This document shows, in pieces, positions 57,561 to 63,143 of a stretch of 64,000 bases of DNA. Where the stretch lies: positions 66,758 through 130,757 of IMG/VR virus record IMGVR_UViG_3300025986_000001; one strand, written 5' to 3'. Origin of the DNA: a virus. Its lineage: Duplodnaviria > Caudoviricetes. The translations under genes were made by a program, and so were the position numbers. The first letter of the stretch is position 1. Each line of letters starts with the position of its first letter. The notes beneath the pieces were generated by a model. It worked only from the letters and a program-made list of their open reading frames with translations, had not been told where the DNA came from and made no database searches.

Positions 57561-59600
57561 ATGGTGCGCGCAGTCGGCCCGGCCGAGAGCCAGCGGACAA
57601 TTCAGCTGCTCAACCCGCGGACGCCGCAGTTCGTCGGGTTCGCCAACCGCAGGATCACCCTGTACACCGACCAGGCGGGCACCCAGCTGGCCGACATCCG
57701 GGTCTTCGACCCGGCTCACCCCACCGTGGTCGGCGCGGCCGTCACCGGCTCGGTGGTCACGCTGGACCGTAACGGCCGGATGGATCCGTTCTGGTTCCCC
57801 GACGGGATTGTGACCCTGTACGGGCGGATTACCCGGACCGCGGGCACGATCCGGCTGACCGCCGGCCCGGCCAGCTCCGAATGGTTCAACCTGGCTGAGC
57901 AGGGTGTCGTTCCCGGCTCGAGCGCCGATCAGACCGCGGCGATCCAGGCCGCCTTCGCGGCCGGCCTGACTGCCGGCTACCAGAAGTTCCTGCTGCCGGC
58001 CGGCGACTACACCATCGCCCTGGCCGAGGGTACGAACCTGTTCGCGATGACCGGCAAGACCGGCATCGTCGTCGACGCGTCCGGCGCGCGGATCATCAAC
58101 GATGTCCTCTACACCGGCAGCACCTTCCCGGCGATCTTCTATCTGTCCGGGTGCACGAACGTCGACGTGCGCCTGGGCGGATACCTGGGTCGGACCCTGA
58201 CCAGCCCGTCGACCGAGATCGGCGTCAAGGGCGCGGTGATCACGCGGATTCTGTCCGGCACCACCGGCGTGCGGGCCCGGCTGAACAACATCCAGTGGTG
58301 CCGGTACGCGGTCCAGTCCGGTGACTACGCCAACGAGGCGCTGGGCGGCTGCGCCAACCTGGACCTGGATGTTGCGGGCGACCACATCGGCTACCCGGTG
58401 GCGCTCTACAACGCCAGCTCGGTCAAGTTGAAGGTCTACGCCACCAACGTCGACCGGGCCGCCTACCTGGCCGGCATCGACGGGATCGACGCCGATGTGC
58501 GGTTCGCGCACTGCATCTCCGGCGGCGACACCGCGGTGCTGATCACGGACGCGAAGACCGGCACCGGCACCTCGCGCGGATGCGCGAACGGCAAGATCCG
58601 GGTCCGGGACATGGGCTCGACCACCATGCAGACCAGCGCCATGGCCTGCGGTATCTCACTGAGCCGGGTCGACCCGGGCACCACCTTCCAGAATTTGGAC
58701 ATCGACGTCCACGTGGTGGCCACCGACACGGTGGCACACCGGATGGGCTGCTTCCGGATCAACTCCGGCGCGACCACCGTGCCGGGCGCCACCTACCCGT
58801 TCGACTGGGAACAGACGATCACGCTGCGCCGGATCCGGGTCAGCGGTGTCATCGACCGCTCGGCGCAGACCACCTCGAGCGCCACCGTCGGGGACATCTA
58901 CGTCAACACGCTGGCCAGCAGCACCCACTACGCCACCGTCAGCGACCTCACGTTCGAGGACCTGACGATCATCACCGGCGTGGCAAGCCCGATCACCTGC
59001 ACCTTCACGGTTCCGGGCCTGGCCGATCGGCTGACGTTCAACCGGTTCATGGCCCCGTCGCTGGACCTGACCATGGCCTCCAACGTAACCAGCGAACTGA
59101 CCCTGACCAACTCGATCGTGAAGGCGCTGCGATCCGGCGGAACCATGTCCGTCACCATGATCAACAGCTCGGCCACCACGGTCGACGACTCAGTCACCGT
59201 GTTCATGAAGAACTTCGGCGCCACCGTCGGTGGCGCAGGCGCGATCTTCCGCAGCAAGCAGGTCACGCTCAACCTGACCGGCACCAGCGTCACCTGGACC
59301 AACGCGATCCCCGCCGGCGCGCTGGTGCTCGGCGTCTCCGGCGTCCTCACTCAGGCGATCACCGGCGCCACCGGCTTCAAGGTAGGCGTGGCTGCCGACG
59401 ACGCGCGGTTCTGCGCCCGGGTGCTGACCGCCGCGGGATCCGCGTTCACCCCGGCACACCAGGCCGGCACGGAGGTCAACCCCCGCAACTACCTGTCGAC
59501 CACCTCGATCCTGGTCGGCGGAATCGCCGGGGCGACATTCACCGCCGGACAGATCAAGTTGACGTTGTTCTACGTGGACTTCTCGACCCCGACCGGCTGA
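57561..59600 (+). CDS. tailspike/depolymerase, paralogue of 48492-50546
   Basis: Shared N-module; ITDAKTGTGTSRGCA; FTAGQI. Confidence 0.85.
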   Translation: MVRAVGPAESQRTIQLLNPRTPQFVGFANRRITLYTDQAGTQLADIRVFDPAHPTVVGAAVTGSVVTLDRNGRMDPFWFPDGIVTLYGRITRTAGTIRLTAGPASSEWFNLAEQGVVPGSSADQTAAIQAAFAAGLTAGYQKFLLPAGDYTIALAEGTNLFAMTGKTGIVVDASGARIINDVLYTGSTFPAIFYLSGCTNVDVRLGGYLGRTLTSPSTEIGVKGAVITRILSGTTGVRARLNNIQWCRYAVQSGDYANEALGGCANLDLDVAGDHIGYPVALYNASSVKLKVYATNVDRAAYLAGIDGIDADVRFAHCISGGDTAVLITDAKTGTGTSRGCANGKIRVRDMGSTTMQTSAMACGISLSRVDPGTTFQNLDIDVHVVATDTVAHRMGCFRINSGATTVPGATYPFDWEQTITLRRIRVSGVIDRSAQTTSSATVGDIYVNTLASSTHYATVSDLTFEDLTIITGVASPITCTFTVPGLADRLTFNRFMAPSLDLTMASNVTSELTLTNSIVKALRSGGTMSVTMINSSATTVDDSVTVFMKNFGATVGGAGAIFRSKQVTLNLTGTSVTWTNAIPAGALVLGVSGVLTQAITGATGFKVGVAADDARFCARVLTAAGSAFTPAHQAGTEVNPRNYLSTTSILVGGIAGATFTAGQIKLTLFYVDFSTPTG

Positions 59601-59678
59601 GCCGGACCCATTCCCACCCTGAAGACCCGCACGCCGTCACGGCAGCGGGCCTTCGCCTTTTCCCGCATGGGAGCCGCT

Positions 59679-62624
59679 ATGCCCCGCACCCTCGTGCGAG
59701 CACCCGGGCACGATCGACTGCGCTCGCTCGGCGGTCTCGCGATCGCCTTCATCGAACACTTCGTCCGACACGGCCCCGGCGCCGTGCAGGGCATGGAGAT
59801 CGCCCTCGGCGACGAGTACGCCGGCTTCATCATGGACGCCTACGCGCTGCTGCCCGACGGCAAACGCTGCTACGACCACTGTTTCCTGTCCCGCCCGAAG
59901 GGCACCAACAAAAGCGGACTGGCTTCATATCTCGCCCTTTTCGAAGCGCTCGGGCCGTGCCGGTTCGCGGGCTTCGCCGAGGGCGGCGAGGTCTACGAGG
60001 ACCCCTGGGGTTTGGGATTTTCATACACATATGAACGCGGCGAGCCCATGGGCAAAGCGGTTCATGTGCCTATGATTCGCATCATGGCCACCGAAGAAGG
60101 ACAGCCCCTCGCGCTCGACACGGCGGTGCCGACCCCGGCCGGGTGGACCACCGTCGGCGAGCTGACCGTCGGCGACACCGTGTTCGACGCTGAGGGTTAC
60201 CCGCGACGGGTGGTTCGCGAGACCCGAGTCATGCAAGGACTGGACTGCTACGCGGTCACCTTCTCCGACGGAGAACGCATCGTCTGCTCCGGCTCGCACC
60301 TGTGGACCCTGGAACGGCGCACCGGCAAAGGCACTGCGTTCGAGCAGGCCACCGTGACCACGGAGCAGCTGGCCGGCGACTATATCCGCGGCGGTGGTCA
60401 GGGCGGCACCGCCGGGCTGCGCTACCGCACCCGAGCCGGCGTCGAGTGGCAGACACCCGAGGTCAACCTGCCGATCGACCCGTATCTGCTGGGGATGTGG
60501 CTCGGCGACGGCAGCAAGTCCGATGCGAGCATCGCCTTCGACTACCGGCTGCGCGATGAGTACGAGGTGCTCCTCAAGCCGCTTCTCGCAGATCACGAAG
60601 AGCTGATCTTCTCCAATCCGGCCGGTAACTCCGGCACGGTACGGATCCGGCGGCGCAAAGGCCTGTGCGCTTACGGTCACGAGTACAGCGCCGACACGAT
60701 CCACTTGAGCTGCGGGCCCTGTCGGCGCATTACCAACGCCGGCCGCGGCAAGCGCCCGGAAGGCGTTGCCGCGCTGACTCTGCGCGAGCGCCTGCGTAAT
60801 GCCGGCCTGCTGGGCAACAAGCACGTGCCCAGCGTTTACCTGCGCGCTTCTGCCGCGCAGCGGCATTCTCTGTTGCAAGGGCTGATGGACTCCGATGGCG
60901 GTTTCGCTCGGGCGAACAACGCGGTCCGCGCAACATTCACCAACACCGACCGACGGCTGATAGACGGCATCGAGGAGCTGCTGACCACCCTGGGCTACAA
61001 GTGGTCGGAACAATGGTGCGAGTCGGTTACGGCGTGACGTGTGCACTTTGTCGCCTGTGCCAGCAAGCCGCCGGCACGCCTGGCGCACAAGGTCGCGAAG
61101 CTCGACATGCTGGGCGATAACGCGCGCTCGCGCCGCCGGCACGTTTCGCTGGTGGAGCGGGTCGAATCCGTCCCGGTCAAGTGCATCGGTATCGATACCG
61201 ACGACCACCTATTCCTGGTGGGCCGCCGGGCGGTGCCGACCCACAACACCGGCAACGTCTACGACACGATCTACTACAACCTGACCGACGAGGACTGCCC
61301 CCTCTCGCATGTGCCCGGCATCGACCCGGGGCGGACTCGGGTGTACCTGCCTGCCGGCGGGTTCGTCATGCCGTCGACCGCCAGCTCAGCCGCGAAAGAC
61401 GGTGGTAAGGAAACCTTTGCCTGGTCCCCCGTTCAGGTGGCCTGGATGGGGGACCAGGCAAAGGTTTGAAATATCGTTGTTTTTGACGAAAGTCACCTGT
61501 ACAATACCGCCGAGCTTAGGCGAATGCACACTACGGTAACCCGCAACCTGGTCAAATTGCGTGGCACCGCGAGCGAGCCGTGGTACATCGAAACCACCAC
61601 GATGTTCGCCCCCGGCGAGGACTCGGTCGCCGAGACCACGTTCCGCGAGGCGGAATTGATTCGGACGCAGAAAAAGAAACGCGGCCGAATCAGGATGCTC
61701 TACGACCACCGTTGGGGCGACGCGCCAGACCTGACCAACGAGGAACAGCTGGTCGAGGCCATCAGGGACGCCTTCGGCGAAGCTATCGAGTGGAACGATA
61801 TTCCGTCGATCCTCGACGAGTTCTACAGCCTGAAGGCGGATCCGGCCGACAGCCGGCGCTACTTCCTCAACGCCGAAACGAGCTCGTCGGACACCTGGCT
61901 GCCGCTACGTGACATCGACTCCTGCAAGGACGCGACGAAGGCCCTGCAGAAGGGCGACATCGTCACCCTGGGCTTCGACGGCTCGATCAACGACGACAGC
62001 ACAGCCTTGGTTGCCTGCCGGGTCAGCGACGGCCACCTCGAGCTGCTGCACATCGACGAGCGCCCAGCTGACCTGCCGGCGCACAAGGAGTGGAGCGTCG
62101 ACGAGGCCGGTGTCGACGCCGCGGTACACGTGGCGTTCGCGACCTACAAGGTGGTCGGCTTCTACTGCGACCCGGCGATGTGGTCGAGCTGGATCGCGCA
62201 GTGGCACACCCGCTACGAACGCCAGCTCAAGGCCCGCGCCACCGCCGGCAAGCCGCTGGAGTTCCGGTCGAACATCCGGACCCGGATGGCGGCCGCGGTG
62301 GAGGCGTTCTACCTGGCGGTCCGTTCGACCGCGAAGGCAGCCTCGGACGGCGTCCCGGAGCAGCGCCAGCTGTCGATCGTGCCGCCGGAGGACCGCCCCG
62401 ATGATGGCAAGAACCTGGCGCTGGTGCTGCGCCGGCACCTGGCCAACTGCTACGTCCGCAAAACCACCGAGGGTGATCTTCTGCGTAAGGAACTGCCGAA
62501 AAGTCCGCGCAAGATCGACGCTGCGATGGCTGCGGTGCTGGCGTTCCAGGCCCGCAACGACGCGATCAAGGCCGGGGTAAAAACCGGCGCCCGGCCCAAG
62601 CGCATCCCGCGCCGCGTCCGCTAA
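59679..62624 (+). CDS. terL: terminase large subunit with intein, two in-frame TGA (61035, 61467) and a 57-nt insertion
   Basis: SRPKGTNKSG (Walker A), VVFDESH (Walker B), LGFDGS..DSTAL, KIDAAMA; all three ORF pieces lie in one frame. Confidence 0.9.
60105..61247 (+). mobile_element. class 3 intein with LAGLIDADG homing endonuclease
   Basis: Starts Pro (PLALDT); HLW, VKCIGI, PTHN/T (WCT triplet); LGMWLGDG and LQGLMDSDG; exteins join as ATEEGQ-TGNVY. Confidence 0.9.
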
Positions 62625-62720
62625 TGCCCGGCAAGCCCAGGCGCTTCGACGGGCCTGCGTGACTCCAGCGCGGCCTGGTCGTTGGCAGGAAGTCCACCTC
62701 CCGCGGCGAGGAGCCGTTGC

Positions 62721-63143
62721 ATGCGCGATTGCACGTACGAGACCGAGTACGAACATCTGCACTCCCACCTGCGGCGGATCACCAGGATGCTCACCGGAAT
62801 CGGTGAGGACCTGGCCCGGCTCGCTCAGTTGGAGATCATTCACAACCTCGAGGAGTTGAGCAGCATGGCCAAGCAGGCCGAAGAGATCAGCAAGCTGGGT
62901 GGCCGGTTCGACGAGCTGGCCGCAGCCGTCACCGACATCCACGCCGACTACGAGGCGCTGCGCGCGGCCATGGAGGCCGACCGCGAGAACCTCTCCGCCG
63001 ACGGCCAGGCCGCGCTGGACGCCGCGCAGAGCAAGGCCGACGCCACCCGCCAGCTGCTGGTGGACCTGGACGTGGCGGTCGGTGACGCCGACGGCTCCGA
63101 CACGCCGCCGGCCGACGGCGGCGAGCCGGCCCCGACCGTCTGA
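62721..63143 (+). CDS. coiled-coil hypothetical protein
   Basis: GAGGAG RBS. Confidence 0.7.
   Translation: MRDCTYETEYEHLHSHLRRITRMLTGIGEDLARLAQLEIIHNLEELSSMAKQAEEISKLGGRFDELAAAVTDIHADYEALRAAMEADRENLSADGQAALDAAQSKADATRQLLVDLDVAVGDADGSDTPPADGGEPAPTV

Follow-up and report, generated by a model that had tools for sequence, protein, structure and literature searches.

The large terminase gene (terL) of an uncultured high-GC soil phage carries, just ahead of its Walker B codons, a 57-nt insert that is a conserved non-coding gap, structured as sense RNA and flanked on both sides by sequence encoding selected protein. The gene lies in the last 64 kb (64,000 nucleotides, hereafter the window, numbered from its first letter) of the 130,757-bp IMG/VR virus record IMGVR_UViG_3300025986_000001. 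Because the insert interrupts the only terL gene and both halves of that gene are under selection in diverged relatives, it must be skipped during expression. The most likely means, in our reading, is ribosomal bypassing, in which ribosomes would leave the message at UUU 61416, land on AUC 61473 and resume decoding at GUU 61476.

In the window, KDGGKETF ends at 61418 and VVFDESHLY begins at 61476 in the same frame, with 19 intervening codons that include a TGA stop (61467–61469). A preliminary description of this DNA had reported the hairpin, the in-frame TGA and their coordinates, all of which we found again within 61411–61475, and had proposed that removal of 57 nt restores KETFVVFDE. The homologues agree with this proposal. 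Exactly three residues separate KET from FDE in Streptomyces phage Samy (KETWVCFDE), in Daredevil (KDTLAIFDE) and in L007, a relative without the gap (KETFVVFDE), and the insert therefore measures exactly 57 nt; L007, whose C-terminal part is 89% identical to that of the window, reads precisely the restored sequence. The motif is assigned to Walker B from its hhhhDE pattern, its position after the P-loop and the membership of the protein in phrog_9. Sequence and profile searches of PDB gave no match for terL, and in an AlphaFold model of an intact relative the ATPase domain is poor (pLDDT <50, residues 1–338), so that the gap cannot be placed on the fold.

The two arms of the hairpin (61411–61437 and 61441–61467) form 27 bp around a 3-nt loop and are 93% complementary at the DNA level. 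The sense-strand fold has an energy of −60.7 kcal/mol (z = −9.2), and none of 200 shuffled sequences is as stable. The antisense fold reaches −47.5 kcal/mol, 13 kcal/mol weaker than the sense fold; it forms only the perfect 20-bp part, because the other seven pairs include G-U. The A/T-ending codons that the preliminary description had noted on either side of the insert reflect a real dip in G+C content, which locally is 49–53% against ~65%. At third codon positions the G+C fraction (GC3), which is 0.87–0.93 further off, drops to 0.50 on the upstream side of the gap and to 0.68 on the downstream side.

The insert is present, without a single difference or indel, in contigs of four other rhizosphere runs, and L005, from another metagenome, is also identical; it is not an assembly artefact. 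Nor is it unique to this assembly, a possibility that the preliminary description had raised, given that 17 other variants carry an insert in addition to L005 and the four runs. A second in-frame stop in terL, a TGA at 61035–61037 within an intein, reads TGG (Trp, with G at 61037) in every one of the four other runs, as it does in the homologous intein of L006. This TGA is a variant or error of the one record, neither a split intein nor a recoding site. Since it is peculiar to this record, the hairpin gap is the only interruption of terL that needs explanation.

Other identities for the insert were considered and set aside. The hairpin has no second copy in the phage genome, an IMG/VR scan for the hairpin alone matched the terL site only, and looser hairpin patterns added neither members from IMG/VR nor copies at sites other than terL. 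A dispersed palindromic mobile element, such as a miniature inverted-repeat transposable element or a repetitive extragenic palindrome, was rejected for want of copies at unrelated sites. Searches of Rfam returned no intron match and only sub-threshold matches to generic microRNA-like hairpins, far below the gathering scores; an intron or intein was rejected on this ground and because the inserts are only 49–62 nt long and fall in all three frame classes. An alternative genetic code or a suppressor tRNA was likewise rejected, as none of the 30 tRNAs reads a stop and TGA is the commonest stop of high-GC3 open reading frames (137 of 227). No terminator-like or promoter-like site was found at the element. 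The 3′ spacer is not significantly similar to the 9 nt that precede the gap, and beyond the landing triplet there is no significant target-site duplication.

A family of gap variants in related terL genes

Including that of the window, there are 18 distinct variants of the gap, 49–62 nt in length and all within the same five-codon stretch of terL, in contigs of many metagenomes that represent uncultured soil and rhizosphere phages. IMG/VR and JGI metagenomes, searched with protein and pattern guidance, supplied the first nine. When the 71 residues that precede the stop were compared with 5.8 billion proteins, they matched 16 truncated N-terminal terL fragments, whose tails are encoded by the hairpin and typically read x-W/R-P-P...G-G, and DNA was obtained for nine further variants. 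Seventeen of the 18 are fully read and one, L144, is partly read; each gap was delimited by the canonical length of the product. An IMG/VR scan for any insert of 44–74 nt at the site, independent of the sequence of the insert, recovered only known members among 52 chance matches.

Gap length modulo three falls in class 0 in four of the fully read variants, in class 1 in three and in class 2 in ten, with L144 also in class 0. The zero-frame stop lies +21 to +93 nt along, in some variants beyond the gap, and the TGA position of the window is not conserved among the homologues in which the preliminary description had suggested looking for it. Together, the occurrence of all three frame classes and the variable position of the stop imply that translation does not, in general, run through the gap. 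Removal of the gap restores K-E-T-F-x-x-F-D-E in every variant, and this spacing is invariant in ~55 uninserted homologues, which means that something must skip the gap exactly.

The position of the gap within the motif varies. Among the 18 variants it comes after the first Phe in 14, after the second Phe in three (L006, L157 and L162) and after the Asp in one (L161, P0102; 2091–2203), where the codon pair is GAT-GAC and the stem, of ~29 bp, includes Walker B codons. In two truncated terL fragments, P0016 and P0018, KETFVIFDE runs into a tail encoded by the hairpin (A-V/L-P-P-L...), which suggests that the gap has a fourth position, behind the Walker B Glu. These two, together with P0011 and P0022, which also have tails of hairpin origin, entered the analysis as protein sequences.

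Two other terL genes have irregularities in the same region. In a more distant one (L049:1577–1660) the second Phe of KETFAVF is followed by a gap of 8 nt that shifts the frame (TTC TAG CG TCC GAC), with a stop directly after the Phe codon; this gap resembles the short gaps of the phage phiHau3 type, discussed below, and lies at the same site. In L035 (626–700) an extra T in GTG TGT TTT T GAC, before Walker B, shifts the frame and could be either a homopolymer sequencing error or a slippery site.

The comparison of terL homologues at the DNA level that the preliminary description had called for showed that the hairpin recurs with covariation. When 21 bp of stem are aligned over nine variants, 94% of cells are paired and 10 of the 21 pairs have changed on both sides. 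None of 500 shuffles reaches these values, and slid partners are 45–56% paired. Fifteen stem cells hold G-U pairs, which correspond to A-C mismatches on the opposite strand; the hairpin is evidently selected as sense-strand RNA. The 5′ end of the stem lies, in all variants, 0–3 nt into the codon that precedes the gap; the stem spans 16–29 bp with a predicted energy of −41 to −48 kcal/mol. Outer helices seen in folds of single sequences (GACGG or GGUGG with the spacer or with the His-Leu codons) were inconsistent between variants and were dropped.

Between gap carriers the ratio of nonsynonymous to synonymous substitution rates (dN/dS) is 0.06–0.30 upstream and 0.17–0.38 downstream of the gap, at dS values of 0.56–1.4, and both halves of terL are by this measure under purifying selection. 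A tree built from 66 terL C-terminal parts groups all carriers in a single clade of 11 rows (Shimodaira–Hasegawa-like approximate likelihood-ratio support 90), in which only L007 and L009 are without the gap, and a second tree placed seven later variants in the same two subclades. The nearest relatives of the window by path length, L163 (53-nt gap) and L157 (50-nt gap), both have gaps that shift the frame. The simplest history would be one old gain of the gap, long vertical inheritance and rare precise losses. Comparison of L006 (633–3009) with L007 (1844–3011) reveals flanks that are 95–96% identical around a replaced segment of ~1.2 kb that is 78–83% identical. The segment takes in the end of the upstream gene, the N-terminal part of terL and the intein site and extends up to the gap, which is its right edge; intein and gap are both present in L006 and both absent from L007. 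Because the replaced segment ends at the gap, at least one loss or gain must have involved recombination.

The codons at the two ends of the gap are matched. The codon before the gap (the take-off codon) in the 17 fully read variants is TTT in 12, TTC in four and GAT in one, whereas the same Phe codon in uninserted homologues is TTC in 36 and TTT in three. UUU forms the weakest possible codon–anticodon pair, and as take-off codon it is also part of the stem. The last codon of the gap (the landing codon) is TTT or TTC in seven variants, GAC in one and ATC, GTC or CTC in nine. It agrees with the take-off codon at positions 2 and 3 in 17 of 17, including the window with its two-of-three pair UUU/AUC, and is fully cognate in eight, with every mismatch at codon position 1. 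Of the 17 variants, 0–2 show such agreement for triplets offset by −12 to −2 from the landing codon, and only two cognate decoys occur. The pair is Phe-Phe where the gap follows Phe and GAT-GAC where it follows Asp (L161). Mismatches confined to position 1 are, at face value, not the pattern expected if a target-site duplication had decayed at random. The codon after take-off, which would occupy the A site, is GCC, GCG, GAC, GTC, CTC or CCG, and so is neither a stop nor a slow codon and never TTA.

Relative to distant codons, GC3 downstream of the gap changes by −0.13 in carriers and by +0.01 in 54 uninserted homologues (p = 0.0016), and upstream by −0.20 in carriers and −0.08 in uninserted sequences (p = 0.018). 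GGTGGT is found in 10 of 16 carriers and in 2 of 50 uninserted homologues, and GAA in 12 of 16 and 9 of 50, respectively. A/T-rich synonymous flanks are a property of the whole gap family and of carriers only. The upstream peptide STASSAAKDGGKETF is conserved both with and without the gap, and G-rich motifs in the 3′ arm are inseparable from the pairing requirements of the stem.

The zero frame after the take-off codon mostly encodes x-W/R/P-P-P in the variants (FAWPP, FARPP or FDPPP), and FAWSP in the window (61419–61433). Consecutive prolines stall ribosomes, and ribosomes that fail to take off might arrest at the proline run; equally, the run could be a by-product of the invariant C-run of the stem.

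Proposed bypassing and the alternatives to it

Bypassing could proceed as follows. A ribosome would decode ...KDGGKETF and arrive with peptidyl-tRNA-Phe on the weakly pairing UUU 61416–61418, at the 5′ base of the very stable, GC-rich hairpin. The anticodon would release UUU and the mRNA would slide through the ribosome. The hairpin would probably re-form on the exit side, behind the decoding centre, and serve there as a ratchet and a ruler, an idea that we put forward because the spacing from stem to landing site resembles that from a Shine–Dalgarno helix to a start codon. In gene 60 of phage T4, pairing of the exiting mRNA has been argued to drive forward bypassing (preprint 10.1101/2024.12.09.627546). 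The tRNA-Phe would then re-pair with AUC 61473–61475, 5 nt past the 27-bp stem and 8 nt past the stem that is conserved in the family; across the family, re-pairing would take place 5–16 nt past the 3′ base of the stem. Decoding would restart at GUU 61476, running from KETF into VVFDE of the Walker B strand and yielding the junction peptide ETFVVFDESHLYNTAELR.

Several observations weigh against this account. The landing AUC of the window matches UUU at only two of three positions, and a cognate UUU decoy is available at 61465–61467, at the 3′ base of the hairpin and within an extension of the stem that is specific to the window. Unlike in gene 60, the codon next to the take-off codon (GCC, GAC or GUC) is neither a stop nor rare. 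The hairpin is far larger than the take-off stem-loop of gene 60 and cannot fit the A site, so the mechanics must differ, and the matched triplets could partly be relics of a target-site duplication. A blastn search of the element against cultured phages gave no match, all carriers being uncultured assemblies, and a pattern scan of isolate genome contigs gave chance matches only, so that no viable isolate carrying the gap is known. Every step at the level of the ribosome is one that we infer from comparing sequences.

Skipping could instead take place in the RNA, if a host or phage endonuclease cut the hairpin from the mRNA and a ligase, for example host RtcB, joined the ends. A covarying sense-strand hairpin is what a structure-specific nuclease needs, and gap lengths of any frame class would fit. 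Excision nevertheless seems unlikely, as it offers no reason for the codon match in 17 of 17 variants or for the switch to Asp-Asp when the gap moves. It would also have to remove the unpaired spacer of 5–16 nt, at a junction that varies relative to the stem, and the phage record yielded no gene for RtcB or an RNA ligase. We know of no such mRNA splicing pathway in bacteria, which counts further against it. The contigs of the four other runs contain no gap-less joined form, although contigs cannot show rare forms. Less likely again is a split gene, in which an N-terminal TerL fragment ending in the gap and a re-initiated C-terminal fragment assemble into the enzyme. Genes split by mobile elements can stay functional, phage ribonucleotide reductase being a precedent; selection on both halves is consistent with such an arrangement, and an in-frame GTG stands just before the Walker B codons in L008, L042 and L044. 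However, in the window and in L006 the downstream frame offers no ATG, GTG or TTG from the last stop up to the DE codons, and the start candidates of L087 lie only in or before the 5′ arm. The break would moreover interrupt the core of the ATPase fold, where the Walker B strand begins, and the matched codons would be left without a role.

The remaining alternatives are more improbable still. The preliminary description had proposed take-off at GTT-TGA with landing on a GTT 9 or 12 nt further on, and decoding peculiar to the window might on these lines translate the hairpin and pass the TGA by a GUU-GUU hop of 9–12 nt or by readthrough, adding 16–19 residues and producing TerL peptides that cover AWSPVQVAWMGDQAK. 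The gap of the window is in frame, GTT 61464 does recur at 61476 and 61479 as had been noted, and L042 has a similar GTC...GTC pair around its stop. Yet no more than 5 of the 18 variants keep the frame, close to the chance level, their zero-frame peptides are not conserved, the position of the stop varies, and the spacing of the segment is invariant in ~55 homologues; the scheme is unworkable in the relatives with frame-shifting gaps, which include the nearest, L163 (53 nt) and L157 (50 nt). We consider it very improbable. With stops at +21 to +93 nt in the relatives and most gaps shifting the frame, what the family has in common is a Phe or Asp take-off at the 5′ base of the hairpin and a landing codon that agrees with it at positions 2 and 3. 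The broader proposal of the preliminary description, a hairpin gap acting as a bypass or splicing element, thus holds in so far as the gap is non-coding and must be skipped (from the 18 variants, the frame classes, the covariation, the selection and the matched codons), whereas its short-hop mechanism is not supported. Its further suggestion is that the gap may limit or time the production of TerL. The least probable of all the alternatives is that terL is dead or wrongly assembled, as might be supposed from a stop-bearing insert in the only terL and from the metagenomic origin of all the sequences. Against this stand the identical insert in four other runs and another metagenome, the 18 diverged variants with compensatory changes in the stem, dN/dS values of both halves well below 1 at dS ~1, and the other apparent lesion, TGA 61035, which is TGG in all four runs.

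The terL locus

The record has a G+C content of 67.5%, contains 30 tRNA genes and is rated 93% complete, and terL (59667–62624, plus strand) is the sole terL-like gene in the whole 130.8 kb. Both parts of the gene match phrog_9 (terminase large subunit), the N-terminal part with E = 3e-12 and the part 3′ of the gap with E = 3e-37. The closest cultured terL is that of Samy, which is 48–63% identical and has no insert. The intein is missing in L007 (MATEEGQTGNVYDT), its copy in L006 is 84% identical to that of the window, and an intein with a LAGLIDADG endonuclease is present in only four gap carriers. The features of the gene are listed in Table 1.

Table 1. Features of the terL gene and its coding gap, in window coordinates.
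Feature	Position	Strand	Remarks
terL N-terminal extein with Walker A-like SRPKGTNKS	59667..60104	+	Homology suggests that the start may be ATG 59679
Intein, 381 codons, with LAGLIDADG endonuclease (PF14528)	60105..61247	+	After ATEEGQ; ends THN before T
terL codons from intein to gap	61248..61418	+	Last residues KDGGKETF; dN/dS of upstream parts 0.06–0.30
Flanks with A/T-ending synonymous codons	61380..61560	+	GGT GGT AAG GAA on the 5′ side; GTT GTT TTT GAC GAA AGT on the 3′ side
27-bp RNA hairpin	61411..61467	+	Stem conserved in the family: 61414–61434 with 61444–61464
Proposed take-off codon TTT (Phe)	61416..61418	+	Within the 5′ base of the hairpin
Non-coding 57-nt insert (coding gap)	61419..61475	+	19 codons beyond the invariant spacing of ~55 homologues
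In-frame TGA within the gap	61467..61469	+	Not conserved in the gap family
Proposed landing codon ATC	61473..61475	+	Matches the take-off codon at positions 2–3 only
terL resumption: Walker B VVFDE, remaining ATPase, nuclease domain	61476..62624	+	VVFDE at 61476–61490; stop TAA 62622

In the window, terL is preceded on its 5′ side by the gene for a 679-aa protein (57561–59600) and followed on its 3′ side by a small open reading frame (62682–63143) and then by genes on the opposite strand. No portal gene follows terL in the window, unlike in Samy and Daredevil; the window and the contig end 1.4 kb past terL. A small-terminase-like gene (PF25673) lies 5′ of terL in several relatives.

Relation to known bypassing systems

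To our knowledge, experiments have established efficient long-range bypassing in essentially one case among bacterial viruses, T4 gene 60 with its homologues, and in the mitochondria of yeast, and our literature search found no description of hairpin gaps of 50–60 nt in terminase genes. The terL gap has in common with T4 gene 60 and its myovirus topoisomerase homologues a gap of ~50 nt in the gene for an essential phage enzyme and a stem-loop that starts at the take-off site (Manning and Atkins, bioRxiv 10.1101/2022.08.31.505936; Atkins et al. 2016, PMC5009743). The AU-rich context described for gene 60 homologues (bioRxiv 10.1101/2022.08.31.505936) parallels the A/T-rich flanks in terL. In gene 60 homologues the codon pair follows the take-off site as this shifts from Gly46 to Asp45, and the GAT-GAC pair of L161 behaves likewise; latitude in P-site re-pairing has also been reported for gene 60. 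There are, however, clear differences. The two gaps have no sequence homology, and the gene (terL Walker B), the hosts (those of high-GC actinobacteria-type phages) and the tRNA (Phe) are not the same. The small A-site stem-loop of T4 compares with stems of 16–29 bp in the terL gaps, an A-site stop or rare codon is found in T4 only, and 10 of the 18 terL landing codons mismatch at position 1. In contrast to the gene 60/mobA cassette, the terL gap has no consistent link to a mobA-type homing endonuclease and no adjacent HNH gene. The mechanism is proven for gene 60, whereas for the terL gaps it is deduced from sequence patterns.

In the terL gene of Streptomyces phage phiHau3, bypassing of two 10-nt UUA-led gaps has been proposed (Smith et al. 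2013, cited in PMC10732093), and the precedent in a Streptomyces phage terminase to which the preliminary description had alluded does therefore exist. As related in that citing article, the gene is again the large terminase of an actinobacterial phage, and predicted local RNA structure brings the landing codon near to the take-off codon. The second gap precedes TFVVLNETH, which aligns by motif with TFVVFDESH and puts this gap two codons upstream of the site in the window. By the same account the phiHau3 gaps, 10 nt long, place a rare UUA in the A site and involve the host bldA tRNA, whereas the terL gaps described here lack UUA and, at 49–62 nt, are dominated by a long hairpin. To judge from the second gap of phiHau3 and the 8-nt gap of L049, gaps of this kind seem to arise readily in this part of terL.

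The mitochondrial byps of Magnusiomyces capitatus, as covered in PMC5009743, include two-of-three pairing at landing sites. They resemble the terL gaps in being short, GC-rich, hairpin-like inserts in coding sequence with imperfect, two-of-three codon matches. They differ, by that account, in being mitochondrial and dispersed over many genes and in having an unassigned A-site codon and relaxed decoding, whereas the terL gaps are confined to one site region of one gene.

We regard the hairpin coding gaps at terL Walker B as a new family that is probably bypassed by ribosomes. A more speculative possibility, which we hold to be doubtful, is that they belong to a wider, undescribed class of bypass elements in bacterial viruses that targets terL ATPase motifs and of which the window carries a second-site member. 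In such elements the force for a hop of ~55 nt, made without a stop or hungry codon, would come from a long GC hairpin as it refolds at the mRNA exit, and the element would re-seat itself after Phe-1, Phe-2, Asp and probably Glu together with a codon pair read by one tRNA. Its persistence might then reflect shielding of Walker B DNA from homing endonucleases or inteins, or the setting of TerL dose.

Gene callers split a gap-carrying terL into two 'hypothetical proteins', which makes complete phages look defective. If ribosomes do bypass these gaps, they would constitute an independent bypassing family in high-GC phages, with at least 18 natural variants and three or four take-off positions. 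Their perfect and two-of-three landings, with no stop in the A site, would then provide a natural mutagenesis series for take-off, sliding and landing.

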